A stretch of 24,413 bases of DNA, from the NCBI GenBank assembly GCA_016235455.1, contig JACRKZ010000066.1:1-24413 (forward strand), written 5' to 3'. Below the pieces are notes generated by a model that was not told where the DNA came from, searched no databases, and saw only the letters and a program-made list of their open reading frames with translations. This DNA is from Armatimonadota bacterium (GTDB lineage Bacteria > Armatimonadota > UBA10988). Shown one piece after another: positions 5,915 through 17,643 of this stretch (its first letter is position 1; every line of letters starts with the position of its first letter). A program made the translations under genes and the position numbers.

Positions 5915-8560
5915 TCACGGCGCGACCAGGCCGTAGAGTGCCACATAGGGCGTGACGAGTCCATTGTGGTCGGTCCAAATGGCCGCGTGGCCGTCGGGCA
6001 GCGGCTTGGGATCGGTGTAGCTGATCAGCAGCCGGCCATGGAACCAGACCGTCAGCGCGGCGCCACAACGCTCGATGCGCAGGTCGTACCAGGCGTTGTG
6101 GATCTCGCGCCACATGGGGATCTGGCCCGGCACCGTGGCCACCACGTCCTTGCCACGGTACAGCGAGCAGAGCTCGCCGCGGCTGCCGACCTCGAAGGTG
6201 TAGCCGCTCTTGGGATCCTTGCCGTCGGCACAGACGCTCACGCAGAGTCGCTCGAACGGCTCGGCGTTGTAGTCGCCGTAGCCGCCCTTCATCTTCACGC
6301 TGAGGGGCACCTGAGCCACGAAGTCGCCGACCAGCCGGCTCTTCTGCCAGAAGACCGCCGGGCCCTGCTCGTTGACGCCGTTGAGCCACGACCACTGGGG
6401 TTGACACAGCCAGCGCGAATCGACGTGCCAGTCGCCCGAGCCCTCCCAGAAGTCCACCGGTGCGCGTTCGAACTGATACTCATGCGCATCGGCCGCGCGC
6501 AGGTCGACGTCCTCGACAGCCACGCCCGGCTCGGAGAGCTTGAGTCCCAGGCAGACCGAGCCCTTGGCCTGGGCGGCGACAGCCACCGGCTTGCCGTCGG
6601 CGCTGGCCTTCCAGACGCCATCATGCCGGGTCAGCTCGATGGCTCGACGCGGACCCGTGACGGTCAGCACCGGCGTCTCGCGCCCGCGTTCGGCGGCGGC
6701 AAAGACGGTCAGGGCGCCGGCGCCATGCCACGGCAGGCGCAACTCGATATTGCCCACGAAGCGGCCCACATGCCACAACACGCCGGGCTCGGCGGTGGGC
6801 CGCCAGACCGACGCGGCGTTGGCCCAGGTGTCGTGGTCGAGCAGCCCGTCGCGGCCCTTGTCCATGGTCGGCGGATGGATGCGCGGCAGGCCCACGGCGA
6901 GGTGGCTGTCGATCACCGCCACATCGTCGAAGATGGCCGCGCCGCCGTCGGCGCCGAGCGCCACGGCGCCCAGCAGGTCCGCCGGTCGCTCCACCGACAG
7001 CAGACGCCGGCCGTCCAGATCGGCCACCAACCGGCCGCCCTCGAGGCCGAGGCCCAGCCGCAGCCACTGCCGGGCCCGCACATCGGCCTTGGCCTGGGCC
7101 AGCGTGCGCGACTGCTCGCCGTGGCGTTCGGTGAGCTTCACCTCGCCGGCCCCGGCCACGCCGAGCGTCAGTTCAATCGCGTTCTTGTCGTCCCAACGGC
7201 CGATCTGCAGCCGCACGGTCTTGGCGTCGAGCGCGCGCACCGAGGTTTCCAGCCGGTAGTCCGACCAGTGCCAGGCGCCGGTCGTGGTCAGGCCGTCGCG
7301 ACCGGAGAGCGCGAAACCGGGCGTGTTGGAGACCTTGGGTGTCTGGCCCGTCAGCGACCAGGCGCCGCCCTCGGCGTGCCAGATGCCGCCGTCGGTGGTG
7401 CCGGCCTCGCTGGAGAAGTCGTCGGTGAAGTACAGCGGCTCGGTGGGCTGCAGAAGCGGTTCCTCGAGCCCTTGCGCGAAGCAGTGTCGACCGGCTACCT
7501 CGGGCGCCGCGATGCGGCCGATCTCGCTGCCGGCCTGGGCCACAACCACCACGCCGGGCCGGCGCACGAGTACCAGTTCCTCGCCGCCGGCCAGCGCGAA
7601 CGACTTGCCGCCGCCGGCTCCCGCGGGCCGCAAGGTGGCGCGCTCGCGCGACGCTTCCAGCACCCAGCCTTGGGCCTTTTTGCCCGGTAGCCACTCGACG
7701 AAGAGGCGGCCCGTGCCCGTCTTGGGCAGGCCGGCACGCAGGCAGTAGCCGTCGGCCGGCGCCGGCCCCAGGTCCTGCGCGCCAAGCACGGTCGGCTCGG
7801 CGCCGGCCGCCACTGGGTCGCCCGCGACCGCCGGCTCGTCGGCGGGCTCAGCGGGCCGCGCCCATTGGGGCTTGGCGCGGCCGTCGGTCAACAGGTTCAC
7901 CGCAGCCAGGAAGAGGTCGTCGAAGTCGGGCGTCCAGTTGCCTTGGAGGTAAGCCAGGTCGCTGCCCCAGTAGACGAAGCGGCCCTTGCCCGCCGGTCCG
8001 GCCAAAACCGCCGGCTGCCCGGCCAGGTCACCGCTCTGGAAACGGCCCAGGACTTTGATGGCCGGGTCATTGATGCCAATGACCTCGGTCTCGGAGGCGT
8101 AGCTCCACTCGCGGTTGGCCGGCACCAGCTTGGCCAGCGGGTTGTCGCCCGGCTCAAGGGTGAAGCGGAACGGCTGGTGACGACGATTGGCGACGCGAAA
8201 CACGCCCACGCCGGCCAGCGCCTTCGACGGCCGAACACCCATCTCCAGCACGGCATGGCCGCCGTTGAGCAGGTACGTGTCCAGTGCGTCGAGGCATTGC
8301 GACAGCCACGGCTCGTTGCCGTGGTTCATGGCGGCCACCAGCAGCAGGTCATAGTTGGCCAGCGCCTTGGCGTCCTTGTGCTCAGCCACCGTGAGGTAGT
8401 CGAACGGTATGCCGGCGCGGGTCAGCACGCCGCCAAAGCCCATGCGCAGCGCACCCATGACGCCGATGCGCGGCAGATGAGGCTGGCCTGCAGGCTCACC
8501 GTGGGCAGCGGTGAGCAGGCATAGCATCACCGTCAGAACGCGACATCCACGCACCACCAC
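5915..8560 (-). CDS. Large exported hypothetical protein; N-terminal class I GATase-like domain plus several concanavalin/lectin-like (DUF1080-like) beta domains
   Basis: Signal-like N-terminus (RGCRVLTVMLCLLTAAHG). LANYDLLLV..YLLNGGHAV..GKGRFVY resembles a GATase-like fold. WSDYRLETSVR, WLRLGL..FDDVAV and WYDLRIER..YTDPKPL resemble lectin-like folds. Start is uncertain (8527-8569). Confidence 0.7.
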   Translation of the reverse strand: MVVRGCRVLTVMLCLLTAAHGEPAGQPHLPRIGVMGALRMGFGGVLTRAGIPFDYLTVAEHKDAKALANYDLLLVAAMNHGNEPWLSQCLDALDTYLLNGGHAVLEMGVRPSKALAGVGVFRVANRRHQPFRFTLEPGDNPLAKLVPANREWSYASETEVIGINDPAIKVLGRFQSGDLAGQPAVLAGPAGKGRFVYWGSDLAYLQGNWTPDFDDLFLAAVNLLTDGRAKPQWARPAEPADEPAVAGDPVAAGAEPTVLGAQDLGPAPADGYCLRAGLPKTGTGRLFVEWLPGKKAQGWVLEASRERATLRPAGAGGGKSFALAGGEELVLVRRPGVVVVAQAGSEIGRIAAPEVAGRHCFAQGLEEPLLQPTEPLYFTDDFSSEAGTTDGGIWHAEGGAWSLTGQTPKVSNTPGFALSGRDGLTTTGAWHWSDYRLETSVRALDAKTVRLQIGRWDDKNAIELTLGVAGAGEVKLTERHGEQSRTLAQAKADVRARQWLRLGLGLEGGRLVADLDGRRLLSVERPADLLGAVALGADGGAAIFDDVAVIDSHLAVGLPRIHPPTMDKGRDGLLDHDTWANAASVWRPTAEPGVLWHVGRFVGNIELRLPWHGAGALTVFAAAERGRETPVLTVTGPRRAIELTRHDGVWKASADGKPVAVAAQAKGSVCLGLKLSEPGVAVEDVDLRAADAHEYQFERAPVDFWEGSGDWHVDSRWLCQPQWSWLNGVNEQGPAVFWQKSRLVGDFVAQVPLSVKMKGGYGDYNAEPFERLCVSVCADGKDPKSGYTFEVGSRGELCSLYRGKDVVATVPGQIPMWREIHNAWYDLRIERCGAALTVWFHGRLLISYTDPKPLPDGHAAIWTDHNGLVTPYVALYGLVAP

Positions 8561-8699
8561 CAGCAACACTCCGGGCTCGGCACTCTACCGACGCCAGCGC
8601 GCCCGTCCAGGTTCGGTCGCAGCCAGCTTTTGTAAGAAGGACGCGGCGCGCGATCGGGGAACATGTGTCTCAATTGCCGTACCCGCACCGGAGATCTCG

Positions 8700-9668
8700 A
8701 TGCGCAGGCTGATACCCGTCGTCCCCCTGGCCGCCTGCTGCCTGTCGCTGGGCGCCTGGGGCCACTTGTGCAACAACATCTACCGCACGCCCGACCGCGT
8801 CATCGTCAAGCCGGAGAAGCAGGTCACCACCGTCGACCAGAGCGAGCGGTTCCGCGTCTTCGTGCAGAACAACTACCCCACCCGACTGACCAAGCTGCGG
8901 CTGGGCGCCCAGGCCGGCGGCGGCATACAGGTCGCCATCGAGCCGGCCGAGTTCGCCCAGCTCAAAGCCGGTGAACGCGTGGCCTTCACGCTGAACCTGA
9001 CCGTCCCGCCCGGCACGCCGCGCGGCACGCAGACGCTGCGCATGGCCGTCGCCGCCAACGAGATTGGATTCCGGCCGGCCGAGCAGCCCACGGTGGCGCA
9101 GTTGCGACAAGCGGCGGGCGACGACAACAGCTCGCCCAAGGTACTGGCCGCCGAATCGCTCATGCGACTGGGCGACCCGACGGGCACCCAGGTGCTCACG
9201 CAGATGGCCAGCGCGGGCGACCGCGACTATGGCACACGTGCGTTGCGCGCCATCGGCAAGTCCGGCGACAAGAACCAGATCCCCTTCCTGCGCAGCGCGC
9301 TACGCAGTCGCGACGGCTCGCTGCGCGGCACGGCGCTGCTGTCGCTGGGCCTGCTGGGCGACGGCAAGAGCACCTTCGTGGCCATGGCCGCCGACCGCGA
9401 CGAGTATGTCAAGGCCTGTGCCTGGGCCGGTTGGTACCTGTCGGGCGAGCACTCCAAAGCGGTCGAGGACGCCGTGCGCGGCGGGCTGACCTCGGACAAT
9501 GTCTACGTGCGCATCGCCTCGGGCTGGGCGCTGGCCAGCAACCGCGACATCGCCGGCATCAAGGCGCTGGACGAGGCGTTCGCCACCGACGATGTGATGC
9601 AGCGTGTGAGCGCCGGCGATGCCATGGTCGACATCGCCAACCGGCCCAACCAGGACCCGCCCAAGTGA
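8700..9668 (+). CDS. Exported protein: mature N-terminal HLCNN motif, Ig-like domain and HEAT/PBS-lyase-like repeats
   Basis: GGAG RBS at 8690. Signal peptide ending AWG|HLC. LKAGERVAFTLNLTVPPGTPRG resembles NEW3/CARDB Ig-like domains. HEAT-like units ALRAIGK, LRGTALLSLGLLG and VRIASGWALA. Confidence 0.8.
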   Translation: MRRLIPVVPLAACCLSLGAWGHLCNNIYRTPDRVIVKPEKQVTTVDQSERFRVFVQNNYPTRLTKLRLGAQAGGGIQVAIEPAEFAQLKAGERVAFTLNLTVPPGTPRGTQTLRMAVAANEIGFRPAEQPTVAQLRQAAGDDNSSPKVLAAESLMRLGDPTGTQVLTQMASAGDRDYGTRALRAIGKSGDKNQIPFLRSALRSRDGSLRGTALLSLGLLGDGKSTFVAMAADRDEYVKACAWAGWYLSGEHSKAVEDAVRGGLTSDNVYVRIASGWALASNRDIAGIKALDEAFATDDVMQRVSAGDAMVDIANRPNQDPPK

Positions 9669-9675
9669 CCCGCCC

Positions 9676-10293
9676 ATGCTGAGCGCCGTCCTACAAGGCT
9701 GGATCCTGGGTCTGGGTACCGGGCTGCTCTGCGCTGCCTCGTGCCTGCCCGTCATGCTGCCCTTCATGGTCGCCGCGGGCAGTGGCCAGGCCAGGAACGC
9801 TGGGCGCTCGCTCGGCGAGTTCCTGCTGGGCCGACTCGCCGCCTATCTGCTGCTGGGCCTGCTGGCCGGCCTGGCCGGTCAGCAGCTCCAGGGCAGTCCG
9901 CTGGCCATACATCTGCTCGGCCTGGCCACACTGCTGCTCGGCGGCTTGCTGCTGGCCAACGGCATCGGCCGCAGCTTCCCCGAAGCCCGGCCCTGCGCGG
10001 CGCTCTGCGGCTCGCGGGTGGGCCGGCGCGTGCCCTTGGCGGCGGGGTTCGTCATGGGCCTGTCGCCCTGCGCGCCGCTGCTGGCCGCCCTGGCCGGCGC
10101 CGCGGAGCGCGGGCCGCTGGGGGCCTTGGCGCTCATGGTATCGTTCTTTGTGGCCAGCTCCTGGGCGCTGCTGCCGTTGGTCGGCGCCTATCTGCCGGCG
10201 CGGCGCGAGCGGCTGCGCGGCATGGCCGAGGTGGCCCTGGTCTTTGCCGGGCTGGCGTTTATGGTGCAGGGCGGCCTGCTGCTCCTGCGATGA
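9676..10293 (+). CDS. DsbD_2 / TauE-SafE-like (cytochrome c biogenesis-type) membrane protein
   Basis: About 6 hydrophobic helices. GLLCAASCLP (CxxxC), FLLGRLAAYLLLG and GLSPCAPL motifs. Confidence 0.8.
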   Translation: MLSAVLQGWILGLGTGLLCAASCLPVMLPFMVAAGSGQARNAGRSLGEFLLGRLAAYLLLGLLAGLAGQQLQGSPLAIHLLGLATLLLGGLLLANGIGRSFPEARPCAALCGSRVGRRVPLAAGFVMGLSPCAPLLAALAGAAERGPLGALALMVSFFVASSWALLPLVGAYLPARRERLRGMAEVALVFAGLAFMVQGGLLLLR

Positions 10294-10306
10294 GGTACCC
10301 GCTGAC

Positions 10307-11302
10307 ATGACCGTGACACGCAAGATCACCCTCACCCGGCGCGCGGTGCAGATCGTCTGCTTCGTGCTGCTGATGTACGGCGGGTTCCTGTGGGCGCCGG
10401 TGGGCGGCCCGCTGGGCAAGATCCCTGGCGGCTCGCCGCGCACCACGACCTATGCGCGCGATCGCATCCTGTGGGTCTCGGGCAAGGAGTCGGTCATCGA
10501 CTTCTACGTGCCGTTCCTGTCGTGCCGGTTCACGGCCAAGGGCGGCCTGTTCAAGTCGTGCTCGGTGCACTTCTTCTCCGAGAACTTCACCTGGCGCACC
10601 AGCCTCAAGCTGATGATGCCGCACATCCTGTTCCTCGTGACGCTGATGGTGCTGGCCGGGCGGTTCTGGTGCGGGTGGTTCTGTCCACTCGGCGCCATCA
10701 TGGACTTCATGACCTGGATCAGGCGCTTAGCCGGCTGGCCTAGACGTTACCTCAGCCCAGCCTGGCAGCGCTTCCTGACCAACACCGGCCATGTCGTGCT
10801 GTGGGTGTGCATCGCCGTGGCCATCCTCATCTCGTTCCCCTTCCTGGGCACGGGCGCCAACGACTCGCTGTTCCTGCTCTACTGCCAGTTCTGTCCGGCG
10901 CGGCTCATCTATCCGCTGCTGGGCGGCGTCAATCCCTGCTGGTACGACAAGACGACGACCATCACCTACATCCTCAGTTGGTGCGGCTGGGCCACGCTGG
11001 CGGTGTTCTTCCTGGGCATCTGGTTCCCCCGGTTCTGGTGCCGCGTCTGCGCCATCGGCACGCTCAGCGGCTACTTCAACCGCGGCTCGCTGCTGTCGTT
11101 GGACAAGAAGGCCCGAGCCTGCACCTCGTGCGGCACCTGCGCGCGCAACTGCCCGGTCGATATCGAGGCCGTCTACCGCGACCGGCGCGGCAACATCGTC
11201 ACCGACCCACGCTGCCAGCTGTGTCTCCAGTGCCTTGAGGACTGTCCCGAAGAGGGCTGCCTCGAGGTCAAGTTCCTCGGCAAACGGATCATCTCCTCAT
11301 GA
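10307..11302 (+). CDS. Membrane-bound 4Fe-4S ferredoxin-type protein (NapH/MauN-like)
   Basis: GAGGT RBS before ATG 10307. GRFWCGWFCPLG, CQFCP and RFWCRVCAIG motifs, TM helices, and C-terminal CTSCGTCARNCP and CQLCLQCLEDCP. Confidence 0.9.
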   Translation: MTVTRKITLTRRAVQIVCFVLLMYGGFLWAPVGGPLGKIPGGSPRTTTYARDRILWVSGKESVIDFYVPFLSCRFTAKGGLFKSCSVHFFSENFTWRTSLKLMMPHILFLVTLMVLAGRFWCGWFCPLGAIMDFMTWIRRLAGWPRRYLSPAWQRFLTNTGHVVLWVCIAVAILISFPFLGTGANDSLFLLYCQFCPARLIYPLLGGVNPCWYDKTTTITYILSWCGWATLAVFFLGIWFPRFWCRVCAIGTLSGYFNRGSLLSLDKKARACTSCGTCARNCPVDIEAVYRDRRGNIVTDPRCQLCLQCLEDCPEEGCLEVKFLGKRIISS

Positions 11303-12423
11303 CCAACAGTCTCTCGTACTTCCGCGATATGGTCACCACCGACCGCCGCGCTCGCGAACTCGCCGACGACCCGCGCCGGGTGGTCGGCACGTTCTGCAAC
11401 TTCGTGCCCGAGGAGCTGATCCTCGCGGTCGGCGCGGTGTCGGTCCGGCTCTGTTCGGGTGATGCCGACGCCGCCACCGCCTCGGAGACCATCCTGCCGC
11501 GCGAGGTCTGCTCCGCGGTGCGCGCCACGGCCGGCGCGGTGGCCGGCGGCGCGGGCCTGTATGGCCGCGCCGACCTGCTGGTCATGCCCACGCCGTGCGA
11601 CGGCAAGAAGAAGCTCGGCTCGGTCCTGGCCTCCATTCGCCCCCTGCACGTGCTCGATCTGCCGCCGCGCAAGGACTCGCCCGGCGCCAAGCCCTTCTGG
11701 CGTCAGCAGGTGGGCCTGCTGGCCGAACGGCTCGAAGCGCTCACCGGCCACCGGCTCAAGCGCACCGCCCTGCGCGCCGCCATCGACCTGCTCAACCGCC
11801 GTCAGGCCGCCTATCGCCGGTTCCTGGGGCTGCGCGCACAGGGCTTGGTGGGCGGTGCCGACGGGCTGATGGTGGCGCAGGCCTCGTTCGTCGCCGACCC
11901 CGCGGAGTACACCGATCAGCTCAACCTGCTGTGCGACGAACTGGCCCAGCTGCCTACCAACGGGAAGACCGGCCCGCGGCTGCTGCTCACCGGCGCGCCG
12001 ATCATCTGGCCGAACCACAAGGTCATCGACCTGATCGAGTCAGCCGGCGGCAAGGTCGTGGCCGACGAGCTGTGCTCGGGCACGCAGCGGCTCTATCAGC
12101 CCACGGAGATCCGCGAGAACTCGCTGCCGGAACTGATCGGCGCCGTCGCTGACAAGGTCCTGCTGCCGTGTACCTGTCCCTGCTTCGTCGATGGCACCGA
12201 CCGCATGAACCGATTGCTGGAGCTGGTCGACGAGCATCGGGTGGACGGTGTGGTCTATCACAACCAACGGTTGTGCGCGCTGTTCGACATCGAGTCGATG
12301 GCCGTCGGCCAGGCCCTGCGCGACAAACGAGTGCCGCTGCTTGCCCTGCAGACCGACTTCAGCAAAGAGGACGTCGGCCAACTGCGCAACCGCGTCGATG
12401 CTTTCATGGAGATGATCTCGTGA
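11299..12423 (+). CDS. 2-hydroxyacyl-CoA dehydratase (HGD-D) family protein, double-cubane-cluster (DCCP)-like reductase
   Basis: GTFCNFVPEELI, LPREVC, PCDGKKK, ADELCSG, CTCPCF, RLCALFDIE and QTDFS..DVGQLRNRVDAFMEMI. Single subunit with two Cys triads. ATGA overlap with the upstream gene. Confidence 0.85.
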   Translation: MTNSLSYFRDMVTTDRRARELADDPRRVVGTFCNFVPEELILAVGAVSVRLCSGDADAATASETILPREVCSAVRATAGAVAGGAGLYGRADLLVMPTPCDGKKKLGSVLASIRPLHVLDLPPRKDSPGAKPFWRQQVGLLAERLEALTGHRLKRTALRAAIDLLNRRQAAYRRFLGLRAQGLVGGADGLMVAQASFVADPAEYTDQLNLLCDELAQLPTNGKTGPRLLLTGAPIIWPNHKVIDLIESAGGKVVADELCSGTQRLYQPTEIRENSLPELIGAVADKVLLPCTCPCFVDGTDRMNRLLELVDEHRVDGVVYHNQRLCALFDIESMAVGQALRDKRVPLLALQTDFSKEDVGQLRNRVDAFMEMIS

Positions 12424-13208
12424 GTCTCTTCGCCGGTATCGACATCGGTAGCCTGTCCTGCGAGGCAGTCATTCTGGACGGCAACAGCCAGGTCGTGGCC
12501 ACGGCGCAGACGCTCACCGGCGCGCGCAGTGGCGTGGCCATCGAGCGCGCCATGGGCGACGCACTGGCCGCCGCGGGCGTTGGCCGCGAGGAGTTGTCGG
12601 CGCTCGTCGCCACGGGCTACGGTCGCGAGCGCGTCGACGGCCGCAGCCGCGCGGTCACCGAGATCACCTGCCATGCGCGCGGCGCCTATCACCTCTTCCC
12701 CGGCACGCGCCTTCTGATCGACGTGGGCGGCCAGGACTGCAAGGCGGTACGCCTGGGCGACGACGGCCGCGTGATCGACTTCGCCATGAACGACAAGTGC
12801 GCCGCCGGCACCGGCCGCTTCTTCGAGGTGGTGGCGCGCGCGCTGGAGATCGACCTGGACGACTTCGGGCCGCTGGCCTTGCAGGCCACGCGCGTCGTGC
12901 CGCTAAGCACCGTCTGCACGGTCTTCGCCGAGAGCGAGGTGGTCTCGCTGGTGGCCCAGGACGAGCCCACCGCCAACCTCTGCGCGGGCCTCTGCGCGGC
13001 GGCGGCGGAGCGAGTGCGCGCGCTGGTGCAGCGGGTCGGCCCGGCGACCGAAGTCACCGCCACGGGTGGCGGCGCCCTGAACGTGGGGCTGGTCCGGGCC
13101 CTGGAAACCGTGCTCGGCGTGAACATCAACGTGCCCGAGCGCCCGCAACTCGCCGGCGCGCTGGGCGCGGCGCTGCTGGGATTGGAGAGCTGTCATGCGA
13201 CCGTGTAA
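12420..13208 (+). CDS. ATP-dependent [4Fe-4S] activator/electron transferase (HgdC/BcrAD/DCCP-R, ASKHA family)
   Basis: GIDIGS, ATGYGR, TEITCHARGA, DVGGQD, MNDKCAAGTGRF and CTVFAESEV. GTG start overlaps the previous stop (GTGA). Confidence 0.92.
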   Translation: MSLFAGIDIGSLSCEAVILDGNSQVVATAQTLTGARSGVAIERAMGDALAAAGVGREELSALVATGYGRERVDGRSRAVTEITCHARGAYHLFPGTRLLIDVGGQDCKAVRLGDDGRVIDFAMNDKCAAGTGRFFEVVARALEIDLDDFGPLALQATRVVPLSTVCTVFAESEVVSLVAQDEPTANLCAGLCAAAAERVRALVQRVGPATEVTATGGGALNVGLVRALETVLGVNINVPERPQLAGALGAALLGLESCHATV

Positions 13209-13830
13209 GTTGCTCTGGCTTCTGGCCGCCGCGCTGCCGGCGCTAGCCGGCGAGCAGTATGCCACCTGGGACAAGCTCTTCCTCAAGCCCCAGGTGCCCA
13301 TGGTCGCCATCGCGCCCGAGGGCACGGTGACGCTGCTGGCCTATCACCAGTACCCCGCGGCCATGCACAACCTGCGCGCGGCCGCGACCAGCGAGCAACT
13401 GACCCTCACAGTGCGCGCCGTGCCCATGTCGGACAAGACGCTGGTGGGCCGCGATCCCGCCACGCTGGCCGAGATGCCGCCCACCGAAATCCACAGCTTC
13501 GAACTGCACGCCGTGCGCCGCGCAGGCGCCGCCGCCGCGGATGTGGCCAAGGTGACCGTCACCTTCACCGCCGACGAACTGCGCGAGCCGCTGGCCTGGG
13601 ACATGGTTGTACCGCTGAACAAGGCCGGCGAGAAGCAGGCCAATGACCCGCTGACCATGCCCGCGGGCGAGGTGCAGGTGGTCGTTGTGCGCAGCAGCAA
13701 GGCCGTGTTCGCCTATCAGGTCGCCCTATGCCTGCTGCTGCTCGCCTGGTGGTGGCGACGCAAGGCGATGATCGGCTCGCGCGTGGTGCGTGAGAAGCCG
13801 GCCCGCCGCGAGCCGGCTTCTCGACGCTGA
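13195..13830 (+). CDS. Exported, C-terminally membrane-anchored hypothetical protein (Ig-like)
   Basis: Signal peptide MRPCKLLWLLAAALPALA. C-terminal TM AVFAYQVALCLLLLAWWW followed by RRK and a basic tail. Overlaps the activator gene by 14 nt. Confidence 0.75.
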   Translation: MRPCKLLWLLAAALPALAGEQYATWDKLFLKPQVPMVAIAPEGTVTLLAYHQYPAAMHNLRAAATSEQLTLTVRAVPMSDKTLVGRDPATLAEMPPTEIHSFELHAVRRAGAAAADVAKVTVTFTADELREPLAWDMVVPLNKAGEKQANDPLTMPAGEVQVVVVRSSKAVFAYQVALCLLLLAWWWRRKAMIGSRVVREKPARREPASRR

Positions 13831-13832
13831 TC

Positions 13833-14510
13833 CTAGTCGAGCCAGCGCACCTGGCCGCTGCCTAGCTCGTAGACGGCGCCCACCACCCGCGTGTGCCCCG
13901 CCGAGACGGCTTCGGTCATCGGGCCGGCACTGGTGCGGAGCAGCGCCACCGTGCGCTTGACCTGCGCGGTGACGGCGTTGGGCAGCAGGTCGCCGGGCAG
14001 CTTCTTGGCGTCCTCGACAGCGGGCGTAATGGCCTTGACCAGCGCGCCGATACCGCCCTCGGGCGCCGCGCCACCGGCCTGCACACACTCCATCGTGGCC
14101 TTGACCGCGCCGCATTTGCTGTGCCCCATGACCACCACCAACGGCACATGCAGGTGCTCGACGGCATACTCCACCGAACCCAGCGCCACCTGATCGACGA
14201 CTTCGCCCGCCGTGCGCACCACGAACAGGTCACCCAGGCCGAAGTCGAACAGCAGTTCCGGCGGCACCCGCGAGTCCGAGCAGGTGACCACCACCGCAAA
14301 CGGCGTCTGGCCGGCATCGAGCTTGGCCCGCAAGGCCGCGGTCTGGTCCGGGTGCACCGCCCGGCCCGCGGCGAACCGCGCATTCCCCTCCTTGAGCCGA
14401 GCCGCCCCATCCGCGCCGCCGTGGCCGCCAGCCGCCACGCCCAGACCAACCGCAACGAACAGAGCTACGCCTCCGACCGCCCACGTCCGCAACCCAAACC
14501 GACGTCGCAT
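13833..14510 (-). CDS. Beta-class carbonic anhydrase with export signal
   Basis: LKEGNARF, CSDSRVPPE, GDLFVVRTAG, GSVEYAV and MGHSKCGAV Zn-ligand motifs. AAGGAG RBS before ATG 14510. MRRRF plus a hydrophobic stretch. Confidence 0.93.
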   Translation of the reverse strand: MRRRFGLRTWAVGGVALFVAVGLGVAAGGHGGADGAARLKEGNARFAAGRAVHPDQTAALRAKLDAGQTPFAVVVTCSDSRVPPELLFDFGLGDLFVVRTAGEVVDQVALGSVEYAVEHLHVPLVVVMGHSKCGAVKATMECVQAGGAAPEGGIGALVKAITPAVEDAKKLPGDLLPNAVTAQVKRTVALLRTSAGPMTEAVSAGHTRVVGAVYELGSGQVRWLD

Positions 14511-14613
14511 ACCGGTCTCCTTGGCGCCACACAGGGCCACCAGACTAGACATCGGTTGGATGGGCCGCAAGCGATGGCCGCCACGTAACGCGGATGTGGC
14601 CGCCGGGGCCTGG

Positions 14614-15798
14614 TCAGCGCGCTGGCGCTTCGGGCGGGTGCGTTGCCAGCAGCCGCTTGAGCAACGGCGGCGCCAGCACCGAGGTCAGTAGCGACATGGC
14701 GATGATGAGCGCATAGGTGCTGCCGCCGAAGACCCCGGCGCGCTGGCCCAGACTGGCCACGATGATGCCGACTTCGCCGCGCGGGACCATGCCCACACCC
14801 ACGATGAGCGCCGATCGCCGACCCAGGCGACGCGCGCCCAGGCCGCAGCCCAGCAGCTTGCCAGCCACGGCCAGGCCTGTGATCAGCACCAGCGCGCCGA
14901 GCACCGGCCAACTCGCCAGCTGACGCAACTCCACCTGGGCACCCGTGACGACGAAGAAGAACGGGACCAAGAACGCCATGAGTGCCTGCACCTGGTGTTC
15001 CAGCACAGCGCGTTGCTTGGCCTCCGCGGCGACCATGCCGGCCAGGAAGGCGCCAATGATCGCGGCCAGGCCCAGGTAAGCCGCCGCCAGCGCCAGCCCC
15101 AGGCACAGGGCCAGACACAAGCTGAGCGGCGAGTGGGCGCTGATCGGCGCGTCCAGCGCAGCCGACGAGCGGCGCATCACCCGCGTGCCCACCACCGCCA
15201 CCAGCACCACGAAGCCGACCGCCTGCCCGAGCACCAGCAGCAGGCCAGCCACATTGACCCTGCCTCCGCCCTGAATGGCGCTGACCACACCCAGCAGGAG
15301 CATGGCGAGGATATCGTCAATCACCGCGGCACCCAGGATCACACGGCTCTCGAGGCGGTTCAACGCACCCAGCTCGGCCAGTACCCGCGCCGTGATACCG
15401 GCCGATGTGGCCACGAACGCCGCGGCGACGAAGGCAGACTGAGCAGTGCCGAAGCCCGCGGCCAGCGCCCAGGCAGCTCCCAGGATGAACGGCGCCACCA
15501 CGCCGGCCACACCGACCGACAGGGCCGTGCCCCCCACCTCGCGCAGATCGTCCAGACGCGTCTCCAGCCCGACCGAGAAAAGCAGCAGCACGGCACCGAT
15601 CTCGGCCAGCACCGACAGCGGCTCGTTGATGGCCACCCAGCCGAACACGGCCGGGCCGATCAGGCAGCCCGCGGCGATCTCACCGACCACGGCGGGCAGC
15701 TTGAGCCGCTGGGCCAACTCCGCGCCGACCTGGGCAGCGACGAAGACCACGAAAAGGCTGAGCAGGACGTCGGTGGCAGGATGGGCGGATGGGGGCAA
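14614..15798 (-). CDS. Cation:proton antiporter, CPA2 (NapA/KefB-like)
   Basis: PAVVGEIAAG, LLFSVGLE, ATSAGIT, GAAVIDD, IGAFLAG, PFFFV, AGKLLG and GMVPRGEV. Probable TTG start at 15798 after GGAG. Confidence 0.9.
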   Translation of the reverse strand: MPPSAHPATDVLLSLFVVFVAAQVGAELAQRLKLPAVVGEIAAGCLIGPAVFGWVAINEPLSVLAEIGAVLLLFSVGLETRLDDLREVGGTALSVGVAGVVAPFILGAAWALAAGFGTAQSAFVAAAFVATSAGITARVLAELGALNRLESRVILGAAVIDDILAMLLLGVVSAIQGGGRVNVAGLLLVLGQAVGFVVLVAVVGTRVMRRSSAALDAPISAHSPLSLCLALCLGLALAAAYLGLAAIIGAFLAGMVAAEAKQRAVLEHQVQALMAFLVPFFFVVTGAQVELRQLASWPVLGALVLITGLAVAGKLLGCGLGARRLGRRSALIVGVGMVPRGEVGIIVASLGQRAGVFGGSTYALIIAMSLLTSVLAPPLLKRLLATHPPEAPAR

Positions 15799-15847
15799 CG
15801 GTCTCTCCAGGCACGGCCGTTGGGCTCGGGCCGAATGCGGTTGGCGC

Positions 15848-17482
15848 TCAGTCGCCGGCCGGCGGGATGGCCTCCACGGGCACAAAGCCGTTGGCGCCCG
15901 CCACCGGACTGATCACAGACTTGATCAGCAGCGAGATGTCCGGCCGGACATACGTCCTGAGCGCCTGCTGCATGGCCTGAACCTCGGCCGGCTCGATGGG
16001 CCAGGGCGTCTCCACCTCGGCGTAGACCAGCAGCCGGTGCGGCTGGACGCGCGGGCGGACGGTCGACACCGTGGCGGTCGGATGCCGCAGGGCCACCTGG
16101 TTGGCCAGCGCCTGTTGCAGCCGGCGGAGCAAGGCCAGCTCGGCGCCGGTCGGCTCGGGCGGCAGATCGGGGTCGACAAAGCCCTGCGACGTGGCCACGC
16201 GGGCCAGCACCGAGCGGACCACCAGCCTGGTCGGCCGGCCGAGCTTCTCGGACAGCGCGGCTTGCAGATCGGCCACCTGGTCCGGCACGACCAGCTCAGG
16301 GGTGCGCACATCGGCCACGAACTGCAGTTGACCCGCCTCGTCGCGCCGGCGCAGACTCACCAGCTCCGCGCCGGACACCGCGCCGAGGCGCTCGGACAAC
16401 ACGCTCGTCGCCTCCTTGAGCATCTTGGCTTCGCGCGTGACGGTCGTCTCTTGGTCGGGCTTGGCCCGCAGTGTGTAAACCGGCCCGTTGGCATCGGCAT
16501 CCTTGGACGACAGCGAGCGCACCACCAGGTGGATGCGCGGGTCCACCCCGCGCCGCAGGTCCTGCTCGATCTCGGCCACCTGGCGCGGCGCGAACTCCTG
16601 CGGGGTGAGCACCACCGCCACGACATCGGTCTGCTCCGGCCCACGGTCGTAGGTCAGCGAGTCGAGTTGCGCGCCAGCCGTCTGGCCGAGCGCCGCCACC
16701 ACGCGCTGCTCCACCTGGTCGCGGAAGTGGCGATCGGCAATCAGGCCCAGGAAGGTGCGTGTCATGAACACCGTCACCGCCACCAGCGCCAACAGACTGA
16801 TCCCGAACCGCCGCAACAGCCGGCCCGCCGAGAGAGCGCTCCCACCGCGGCACTGAGCAATGCCCGTCACGAGAAAGAGCAGCGACGCGGCCATCTGGAT
16901 GGCCACCAGGTTGGCCAGGAACAAGAGCATAGCGCCCTTGGCCAGCTCTGGACGATGAGCGCCCAGACATAGACCGCACGTGGCCAGCGGCGGCACCAGC
17001 GCCACGGCGATGGCCACGCCCGGCAGCGAGGTGCTCACGCGCGCATCGGCCATGGCATACGCGCCCGCGCAGCCCGCCGCCAACGCGATCAAGATGTCGT
17101 AGAGCGTCGGCTGCGTGCGCGCCATGACCTCGGAGCCGAGCCCCAGACTGAGCGGCACCCGGCCGATCAGGTAGGCCAGCAGCAGACACAACAGGACGCC
17201 GAGCGACTCGGTCACCAGGGCCCGCCCGGCCAGCCGCCGGTCGCCGGCCGCCAAACCCAGCGCCAGTCCCAGAATGGGACCCATCAGCGGCGCCACGATC
17301 ATCGCGCCGATGACCACCGCCGTGCTGTTGGCCAACAGGCCAAACGAGGCGATGGCCGCGGACAGCGCGGCCAGCACGTAGTAAGCCCGGTCCCCACGGG
17401 CCATTTCCACTACCGCGTCATACGCGGTCTGGAGTCGCGCGGTGTGCTCCGCGCTGTGCTCGGCCGGCGTAGCCCTAGCCAC
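15848..17482 (-). CDS. DUF389 (TIGR00341-like) membrane protein with a long C-terminal repeat region
   Basis: GLLANSTAVVIGAMIVAPLMGPI, ARTQPTLYDILIAL, LPGVAIAVALVPPL and LFLANL. Probable GTG start at 17482 after GAGGG. Confidence 0.85.
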   Translation of the reverse strand: MARATPAEHSAEHTARLQTAYDAVVEMARGDRAYYVLAALSAAIASFGLLANSTAVVIGAMIVAPLMGPILGLALGLAAGDRRLAGRALVTESLGVLLCLLLAYLIGRVPLSLGLGSEVMARTQPTLYDILIALAAGCAGAYAMADARVSTSLPGVAIAVALVPPLATCGLCLGAHRPELAKGAMLLFLANLVAIQMAASLLFLVTGIAQCRGGSALSAGRLLRRFGISLLALVAVTVFMTRTFLGLIADRHFRDQVEQRVVAALGQTAGAQLDSLTYDRGPEQTDVVAVVLTPQEFAPRQVAEIEQDLRRGVDPRIHLVVRSLSSKDADANGPVYTLRAKPDQETTVTREAKMLKEATSVLSERLGAVSGAELVSLRRRDEAGQLQFVADVRTPELVVPDQVADLQAALSEKLGRPTRLVVRSVLARVATSQGFVDPDLPPEPTGAELALLRRLQQALANQVALRHPTATVSTVRPRVQPHRLLVYAEVETPWPIEPAEVQAMQQALRTYVRPDISLLIKSVISPVAGANGFVPVEAIPPAGD

Positions 17483-17643
17483 TGTCCACCCTCGTGTTCG
17501 CGCGTCCCTCGCCAGGGCGCTCCCGGGCTCACCACTGAACCGCCAAACCCGACAGCCTGTTAAGGCATTTTGGCACACGCCGACCAGGTTCGGCGCCGCT
17601 TGGCCTCGCATGGCGGAACCACGGCCCGCGCCAGCGCGTCCAT

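Follow-up and report, generated by a model that had tools for sequence, protein, structure and literature searches.

Conserved neighbors of a double-cubane-type protein in Armatimonadota suggest a link between ATP-driven reduction and exported proteins

In vitro, acetylene, azide, and hydrazine all serve as substrates for reduction by double-cubane proteins, whose physiological role is given as unknown in published passages (PMC9351452, PMC7317905). Which partners such a protein might serve is the question raised by a 24,413-nucleotide stretch of Armatimonadota DNA (assembly GCA_016235455.1, contig JACRKZ010000066.1, positions 1 to 24,413; G+C content, ~70%), referred to here as the window. 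Six genes follow one another on its forward strand at 8700-13830: g1 (8700-9668), encoding an exported protein whose mature chain begins His-Leu-Cys and continues into immunoglobulin (Ig)-like and HEAT domains; g2 (9676-10293), a DsbD_2 membrane protein; g3 (10307-11302), a four-helix polyferredoxin; g4 (11299-12423), a double-cubane-cluster-type protein of the HGD-D fold; g5 (12420-13208), an HgdC/BcrAD-type ATPase (archerase, or activase); and g6 (13195-13830), an exported, membrane-anchored protein. Read from the sequence, gaps of 7 nt (g1/g2) and 13 nt (g2/g3) are followed by ATGA (g3/g4), GTGA (g4/g5), and 14-nt (g5/g6) overlaps, and a GGAG lies 8 nt 5' of the g1 ATG. Open reading frame (ORF) calls, Pfam (g1 to g4), and NCBIfam (g3 to g5) agree with a first-pass annotation of the letters alone, which had described these genes, junctions, and domains and had proposed that they couple cytoplasmic ATP-driven reduction to an extracytoplasmic target. 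The predicted docking of g4 on g3 and the invariant cysteines on the outward face of g3, both described below, support that coupling.

We began with the relationship of g4 to the double-cubane cluster protein (DCCP) of Carboxydothermus hydrogenoformans. DCCP and its archerase DCCP-R are encoded by the adjacent genes CHY_0487 and CHY_0488 (PDB 6ENO, 7YYL), an adjacency that g4 and g5 share. g4 matches HGD-D (PF06050) at 297.3 bits over residues 33 to 373 of 374, which places it in this fold. Its best NCBIfam match is double_cubane (NF040772), at 318.2 bits against a cut-off of 350; because the score falls 32 bits short, we file g4 as DCCP-type and not as an equivalog. The corresponding scores for dehydratase and reductase subunits all lie below their cut-offs (HadC, 85.5 versus 700; BzdN, 71 versus 453.8; BcrC, 56.5 versus 421). 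Among solved structures, the DCCP chains 7yyl_C and 6eno_A match over nearly the whole length of g4 (232 bits, E of ~1e-67), compared with 74 bits for BzdN and 73 bits for HadC. The earlier description of g4 as DCCP-like thus stands.

The cysteines of g4 point the same way. The DCCP motif comprises six ligands of the [8Fe-9S] cluster and a seventh, nearby cysteine, as described in a passage of a 2020 review (PMC7317905). All seven motif cysteines of 6ENO/7YYL align with cysteines of g4 (C33, C52, C71, C100, C259, C293, and C326). Six of these are invariant in 12 orthologues; the seventh, C52, corresponds to the non-ligand Cys94 and gives way to Asp in 3 of the 12. A regular expression built with the spacings printed in the review finds no match in g4 because the first three gaps are each one residue shorter and the long gap is 158 residues; residue-by-residue alignment recovers the motif. 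g4 is also ~47 residues shorter than the Carboxydothermus protein and lacks ~43 N-terminal residues, since the alignment begins only at DCCP residue 64. According to the review's passages on these proteins, the N-terminal residues of Carboxydothermus DCCP close a channel, and a short form with a more open active site is ascribed to YjiM-like proteins (PMC7317905); with the channel-closing residues missing, a larger substrate could reach the g4 cluster.

The product of g5 scores 238.7 bits against TIGR00241 (cut-off, 125.4), in line with its first-pass assignment as an HgdC-type activator. Its PDB matches place it nearer to MbdQ (232 bits) and HadI (216 bits) than to DCCP-R (165 bits), with HgdC at 186 bits. 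Both C127 and C166 align with cysteines of MbdQ and are conserved; as in HgdC, they are probably the ligands of a dimer-bridging 4Fe-4S cluster. With its GTGA overlap, g5 supplies the partner archerase expected of a DCCP gene. Judged by sequence, g4 and g5 may work like DCCP and DCCP-R: fold, cysteines, and partner agree, and the equivalog score does not.

The domains of g4 and g5 (HGD-D and BcrAD_BadFG) also occur in ordinary 2-hydroxyacyl-CoA dehydratases and benzoyl-CoA reductases, and the closeness of g5 to MbdQ and HadI would suit an enzyme of this kind acting in fermentation or aromatic degradation. Such enzymes need two different HGD-D subunits, and in a tblastn search of the source genome (E of 1e-8 or better), g4 found only itself. 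The HadC and BzdN scores and the complete set of DCCP-aligned cysteines count against this explanation as well. So does the surrounding DNA: as the first-pass annotation had noted, no CoA-transferase or acyl-CoA dehydrogenase gene lies nearby, and none is present among the four flanking ORFs scanned (5915-8569 and 13833-17611). We regard a CoA-ester enzyme as poorly supported and scarcely credible here.

We then asked whether the six genes belong together. Full-length g1 orthologues (E of 1e-79 or better) are present in 5 of 41 related genomes, including the source genome (G000), and the other genes lie alongside in each. In three relatives (G002, G004, and G003, the last on a contig that stops after g5) the order is g1-g2-X-g3-g4-g5-g6, where X is an exported protein of ~300 amino acids with a DUF6599 domain (PF20244, 82 bits). 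The phrase "six-gene operon" is therefore accurate for the window, which lacks X, but the set as it occurs in relatives has seven genes. In four public DNA runs, drawn from two studies, contigs span the g2-g3 junction without an insertion, although the first three of these runs may include the source sample; joints in metagenome contigs with short sides (21 to 39 letters) were disregarded as noise. Groundwater and freshwater sites contain this DNA. On contig C105 of the source genome, a second g1 copy (47% identity to g1) and a DUF6599 gene together occupy 15074-15982 and 16091-17167 on the minus strand (locus L013). This g1 copy carries the same His-Leu-Cys-Asn-Asn tip and lies directly upstream of the DUF6599 gene; the pair stands apart from the rest of the set. 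Because the source genome keeps this pair, we consider the seventh gene displaced rather than lost, and the C105 locus probably supplies the DUF6599 protein missing from the window.

A metagenome scan seeded with the g1 alignment returned 29 loci, 28 of them with g1-type matches; 14 show g4 or g5, and the remaining 15 either are short or break off at g1 or shortly after it. Merging near-identical copies (>93% identity) reduced 45 loci to 31 distinct systems, 16 of which reach g3. In 14 of these 16, g4 adjoins g3 (once as a partial gene at a contig end). The genes are arranged in four orders, across G+C contents of 0.49 to 0.71: g1-g2-DUF-g3-g4-g5-g6; g5-g1-g6-g2-DUF-g3-g4; g6-g2-g3-g4-g1-DUF; and g1-g6-g2-DUF-g3 with g4 and g5 convergent. 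None of the genes flanking the set in the window is kept beside it in 13 related loci. Since the same genes recur in 16 distinct loci despite rearrangement and without conserved flanks, their arrangement reflects more than chance.

The distribution of g3 and g4 across genomes agrees with this conclusion. Among 401 Armatimonadota genomes, g3 orthologues (52 to 65% identity) occur in 11, from several families, and g4 orthologues of at least 47% identity occur in exactly the same 11; the next-best g4 match elsewhere has 41% identity and contains a stop codon. In G005, a 95% complete genome of the same family, neither the module nor g4 nor g5 was found. We read this match as a strong pattern and not as a statistic because related genomes are not independent. 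Homologs of the exported and membrane genes thus do occur with DCCP-type and activase genes, and the six genes very probably form one functional unit in a patchy minority of Armatimonadota. Surveys for g3 centered on the genomes holding loci L044 and L045, outside the phylum, gave 0 of 301 each at an E of ≤1e-30; the two listed the same genomes, with taxa unspecified, and we draw no conclusion about range from them.

A reader might still see here a periplasmic and membrane module (g1, g6, g2, DUF6599, and g3) that happens to neighbor an ordinary DCCP-activase pair. Two observations suit hitchhiking of this kind: the lone g1-DUF6599 pair on C105, and two genomes in which the DCCP-type gene is not beside g3. 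In one of these (G054), g4 and g5 lie 12 kb from g3 on the same contig; in the other (G006), g4 is on another contig, and a gene for an FG-GAP/VCBS-repeat protein lies downstream of g3 in its place. The shared 11 genomes, the adjacency of g3 and g4 through four gene orders, the ATGA and GTGA overlaps in the window, and a predicted g3:g4 complex that passed its controls all speak against it, and we judge this poorly supported explanation very improbable. G006 also carries two g1 copies in tandem (L017/L019, G006:C655, 3739-5670), the first with one in-frame TGA.

In such a unit, g3 would connect the two sides of the membrane. It matches Pfam Fer4_5 (43.4 bits; cut-off, 22) and a Fer4_10 dicluster ferredoxin domain. 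The first-pass annotation called it NapH/MauN-like. This holds for much of the architecture, in which g3 resembles NapH, MauN, NosH, and CcoG: four helices, a CX3CP motif after helix 2, and a C-terminal domain with two 4Fe-4S motifs. It does not hold for family membership, as g3 misses the cut-offs of TIGR02163 (56.5 versus 213.05 bits), NapH NF007013 (48.9 versus 234), and CcoG TIGR02745 (18.3 versus 316.7). By a simple hydropathy count combined with the NapH topology, the N terminus, the CX3CP motif (C122/C126), C245/C248, and the 4Fe-4S motifs (C272-C282 and C303-C313) face the cytoplasm, and loops 33-99 and 182-221 face outward. Unlike NapH-type proteins, g3 has CxxCA (C245/C248) instead of CX3CP as its second membrane-face motif and carries five cysteines and a histidine in the two outward loops (C73, C85, H88, C193, C196, and C211), all invariant in 16 orthologues and set within long invariant stretches. 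To our knowledge, such outward cysteines and histidine are not a feature of NapH. None of the scanned ORFs is a NapG, NapA, MauA, or cbb3 gene, and a profile search of the PDB with g3 returned ferredoxin domains only. CcoG is a cupric reductase and shows that a polyferredoxin of this architecture can reduce metals. g3 may work like a NapH/CcoG-type polyferredoxin with additional outward cysteines, while falling outside those families by score.

We next considered whether g3 and g4 could touch. The predicted g3:g4 complex scored 0.71 (0.72, 0.71, and 0.71 in separate runs), a value that expresses model confidence and is not a measurement; the best of three controls scored 0.00. At least 92% of contacts were common to the runs, and partner pLDDT values were at least 87. 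Of 80 solved complexes, 58 reach the pass mark, as do 2 of 110 mismatched pairs; these counts are only a rough guide for alignments that, as here, were made by the authors. This result answers the first-pass call for a complex prediction in favor of the pair. The interface comprises g3 residues 140-146 and 269-314 and g4 residues 155, 266-290, and 300-311. All of the g3 residues lie on the side that hydropathy had independently placed in the cytoplasm, and the g4 segments flank the cluster ligands C259 and C293. We know of no solved complex of the g3 and g4 families, and PDB profile searches with each found none containing both; recall of a known structure by the model is therefore an unlikely source of the score. 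A passage on the DCCP complex names the C-terminal helix, D400-D405, Q408, and N111 as sites contacted by DCCP-R (PMC9351452). The positions named there map to parts of g4 other than the predicted g3 interface, so a ternary g5:g4:g3 arrangement is possible. On the strength of the model, we think physical contact between g3 and g4 is somewhat more probable than its absence, with g4 predicted to dock on the cytoplasmic ferredoxin domain of g3. g4 is thus tied by gene order, distribution among genomes, and predicted interface to a membrane polyferredoxin and exported proteins, which sets it apart from DCCP as described: published passages on DCCP name no such link and give its physiological substrate as unknown (PMC9351452, PMC7317905).

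An interface of this kind does not by itself set a direction. NapH-type proteins are quinol dehydrogenases, and g3 shares their four-helix, CX3CP, two-ferredoxin-motif architecture; the set, moreover, encodes no electron donor for the archerase, which requires one. g3 might then be fed by the quinol pool, or by a periplasmic donor that g1, g6, and DUF6599 handle, and pass the electrons inward to g5 and g4, where ATP would lift them to a potential low enough for reduction of a small molecule in the cytoplasm. The failure of g3 to reach the NapH/MauN cut-off (56.5 versus 213 bits) argues against this inward route, as does a predicted docking site on g4 and not on the archerase (g3:g4 being the only pair modeled). 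POR-type genes could also reduce ferredoxin directly: the source genome has three POR_N matches (pyruvate:ferredoxin-oxidoreductase-type), a possible source of reduced ferredoxin. We find inward flow improbable.

The exported proteins would supply the outer end of an outward route. g1 has a signal peptide encoded at 8700-8762 (plus strand), after which the mature N terminus, His-Leu-Cys-Asn-Asn-Ile-Tyr-Arg-Thr-Pro-Asp-Arg, is encoded at 8763-8798 (plus strand). Two Pfam matches follow, NPCBM_assoc/NEW3 (a CARDB-like Ig domain; 28.2 bits, cut-off 24.4) and HEAT_2 (60.6 bits, cut-off 27.7), in keeping with the exported HLC/Ig/HEAT protein described at first pass. An AlphaFold2 model (mean pLDDT, 88.1) shows a disordered tip (residues 1-10, below 50), an Ig sandwich (strands at 13-98), and a HEAT solenoid (helices at 111-293). 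In all 33 g1 sequences of the loci, His-Leu-Cys-Asn-Asn directly follows the predicted signal peptide, always at a signal-peptidase-type site, and 21 orthologues agree in every one of their first 12 mature residues. In a search of 1.84 billion clusters, His1 and Cys3 were kept in 20 of 20 distant representatives, and the rest of the tip varied; these 20 are those of the 150 best-listed matches, dominated by giant HEAT proteins, that begin within the first 20 profile positions, and further family members may lie beyond the 150. Foldseek with the g1 model returned HEAT-repeat and designed alpha-Rep proteins only, which is uninformative on the Ig domain and tip, and a PDB profile search likewise returned only HEAT proteins. 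In the ESM Atlas, the Ig domain matched CARDB/NEW3-type clusters, below 0.9.

N-terminal metal sites exposed by signal-peptide cleavage are known from the histidine brace of lytic polysaccharide monooxygenases (LPMOs), CopC, and YcnI and from the Ni-hook of nickel superoxide dismutase (NiSOD). g1 resembles these in two respects: its mature chain starts with His, and its tip, disordered in the apo model, is attached to or lies next to an Ig-like sandwich. It nevertheless falls short of a histidine-brace protein: the N-terminal His is present, but among 35 columns invariant in 21 orthologues there is no second His, and the second conserved His (or Asp/His pair) of LPMO, CopC, and YcnI is not found. 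Unlike the Ni-hook, g1 has one Cys (position 3) and not two. Since nine more invariant residues follow the His-x-Cys, the tip hints at a peptide for docking no less than at a site for a metal.

In g6, a signal peptide and an Ig domain are followed by a second region, and the chain ends in a membrane helix and an Arg-rich tail; g6 matches no Pfam or NCBIfam family; the helix and basic tail are kept in 16 orthologues, as expected of the anchored exported protein first described. It lacks the His-x-Cys tip, and its tethering echoes that of YcnI-like proteins. By hhalign, its Ig domain aligns with that of g1 at a probability of 98.5% (E of 1.9e-15, 112 columns), which identifies g6 as a paralogue of the g1 Ig domain. 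In five distinct systems, g1 and g6 are fused in one polypeptide, the added part matching g6 at an E of 5.7e-56. A search for g6 homologues found two clusters only.

g2 matches DsbD_2 (PF13386, CcdA-like, LysE clan; 55.7 versus 24.9 bits) and has six helices by hydropathy and a positive-inside count, read alongside the CcdA topology. Across 17 orthologues, four cysteines never vary: helix 1 holds C19 and C23, the third loop C107, and helix 4 C132. This bears out its annotation as a DsbD_2-like Cys membrane protein. Six helices and cysteines beside prolines in helices 1 and 4 recall CcdA and DsbD; the CX3C pair in helix 1 and the further invariant Cys in a cytoplasmic loop set g2 apart from them. 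No thioredoxin-like periplasmic partner was found in any locus or among the domains of the seven conserved genes.

Membership of g2 in a clan of small-solute and metal carriers, together with its four invariant cysteines, also allows a scheme in which g1, g6, and DUF6599 bind an external metal or sulfur species, g2 imports it, and the double-cubane protein reduces it in the cytoplasm with ATP, the part of g3 being confined to feeding or buffering electrons. Binding is typical of HEAT and Ig domains, and the short form of g4, without channel-closing residues (PMC7317905), could admit a larger substrate. Capture and import would leave the five invariant outward cysteines and the histidine of g3 without a role, would not explain predicted docking beside the cluster ligands, and has no solute-binding-protein or ABC-type partner to draw on. 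We consider it unlikely, if less so than inward electron flow.

Taken together, these results lead us to propose, tentatively and with a little more doubt than confidence, that the archerase energizes electrons with ATP and that the double-cubane protein and then the polyferredoxin hand them on to a tethered complex in the periplasm, which holds a metal or small substrate. In this proposal, g5 would hydrolyze ATP in the cytoplasm and charge g4, at its double-cubane [8Fe-9S]-type cluster, with an electron; g4 would sit on the cytoplasmic ferredoxin domain of g3. The two 4Fe-4S clusters of g3 and its Cys motifs at the membrane face would relay the electron to a Cys-rich site formed by the two outward loops. 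At the outer face, g1, DUF6599, and g6 as anchor would form a complex holding the target, most likely a bound metal ion or small inorganic substrate; g1 would contribute its disordered His1-x-Cys3 tip on the Ig domain and its HEAT scaffold, and the tip would either dock into g3 or serve to hold a metal. g2, as a Cys-lined DsbD_2 channel, would move thiol reductant or metal across the membrane. That electrons flow outward, what the outward cysteines do, and what the target is are inferences.

Several points weigh against this mechanism. No RNA run is among the public runs listed as containing the stretch. Electrons may arrive at g4 from g3 instead of leaving it for g3, and a periplasmic target would have no obvious need of ATP-energized electrons. 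g4 falls short of the double_cubane cut-off, the topologies of g2 and g3 rest on hydropathy, and the docking is a model's confidence. g5 adjoins the set in 10 of the 16 distinct loci that reach g3, and g4 lies away from g3 in 2 of the 16. Outside Armatimonadota, none of 41 DUF6599 loci has a DCCP or activase gene; instead, a protein of ~300 amino acids follows DUF6599, and of 22 such proteins scanned, 21 match DUF362 and 1 matches a TAT signal. The source genome encodes a haem-copper oxidase, and the oxygen-sensitive clusters would therefore need anoxic or micro-oxic conditions; this oxidase and the POR-type genes could fit a facultative organism running the system at low oxygen.

No characterized pathway matched the operon. 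Our literature search found no paper that describes this combination, none on DUF6599, and none that joins a double-cubane protein with a polyferredoxin; items on NapH together with 2-hydroxyglutaryl-CoA dehydratase were unrelated, judged from their listing. The first-pass view that the system is undescribed agrees with this result. The set offers a first genomic clue to the role of the double-cubane reductase family: one subfamily has fixed partners, which makes the substrate question testable on a defined set of seven proteins. If the link is true, the archerase principle is not confined to soluble cytoplasmic enzymes, and a NapH-type scaffold can act as a transmembrane iron-sulfur wire. The invariant His-x-Cys mature N terminus is a candidate for a new exported metal site. 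In its boldest form, the proposal would give the double-cubane protein its first natural job and an archerase its first output beyond the cytoplasm, with g3 as an all-Fe-S/Cys wire, free of haem and quinone, reducing a metal on the g1 His-x-Cys hook, so that an exported metal center of a new kind would be kept low-valent by ATP; we think this full version unlikely.

Two widespread families of unknown function, DUF6599 and DUF362, gain a redox context from these loci. The DUF6599 model (pLDDT, 92.1) shows two alpha/beta units. Foldseek gave no PDB match at an E of ≤0.001; the best matches, TP0453, MucB/RseB, and TiME at an E of ~0.03, are leads only. A PDB profile search found nothing, and the ESM Atlas returned DUF6599 clusters only. 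In loci L022 to L060 (Acidobacteriota, Aminicenantes, Ignavibacteriota, and others), DUF6599 and DUF362 lie on the same strand in 21 of the 22 loci scanned, often with overlapping stop and start codons, and the DUF362 consensus opens with a twin-arginine-like RRDF motif. DUF6599-DUF362 (PF20244 with PF04015) is a widespread, undescribed two-gene pair. It shares DUF6599 with the seven-gene set; its loci lack DCCP, activase, g1, and g6, and the set lacks DUF362. A NapH-like gene lies nearby in 4 of the 41 DUF6599 loci outside Armatimonadota. Passages in the literature place DUF362 in the LarA clan (PMC11770544) and describe DUF362-CBM9 fusions (PMC5742341).

Related modules also occur within Armatimonadota. 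The source genome carries DUF6599, DUF362, and a 586-amino-acid Fer4_5 polyferredoxin on contig C73 (16795-20730, minus strand; L103) and DUF362 followed by DUF6599 on contig C113 (20101-21909, plus strand; L104). In G042 (L097, 447-5585, minus strand), a PA14 protein, DUF6599, DUF362, and a 515-amino-acid Fer4_5 polyferredoxin are encoded divergently from the main set. Locus L100 (G092:C9, 8184-15026, minus strand) encodes an 881-amino-acid GxGYxYP/CBM9 protein, HGD-D, activase, exported DUF6599, and HGD-D again, so that two different HGD-D subunits surround the activase and DUF6599 beside a carbohydrate-binding protein. Locus L099 (G227:C1, 6312-11715, minus strand) encodes Fer4_5, HGD-D, two activases, a 256-amino-acid exported protein without a known family, and DsbD_2; an in-frame TAA in its HGD-D gene may be a pseudogene lesion or a sequencing error. 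Because of the G042, C73, G092, and G227 loci, we conclude that exported DUF6599, polyferredoxins, DsbD_2, and archerase-driven HGD-D proteins recombine repeatedly in this phylum. The PA14, CBM9/GxGYxYP, and NEW3 domains near these modules are a carbohydrate lead only.

Prepilin-type proteins with a near-identical N terminus (FTLIELLVVIAIIAILAAILFPVF...) recur near the set in two relatives (L014, 3000-3686, plus strand; L015, 13576-14259, minus strand) and elsewhere in the source genome (C113, 19376-20032, minus strand); they probably belong to a large protein family common in such bacteria.

In the window itself, an 884-amino-acid exported protein is encoded divergently from g1 (5915-8569, minus strand), its sole match being a GH59 lectin domain at 22.8 bits, below cut-off. 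A convergent beta-carbonic anhydrase gene (13833-14570, minus strand) ends 2 nt past the g6 stop, and genes for a Na+/H+ exchanger (14614-15885, minus strand) and a DUF389 membrane protein (15848-17611, minus strand) lie beyond it. An Rfam search of the window gave no match, a promoter scan gave 0 sites, and the five terminator-like sites (2.4 expected) are all intragenic. In run X1, summed contig depth peaks at 958 over 12671-12847, compared with ~30 to 120 elsewhere, and short contigs and joints accumulate at 12680-12830, within g5; a conserved activase stretch there probably attracts activase contigs of other organisms.

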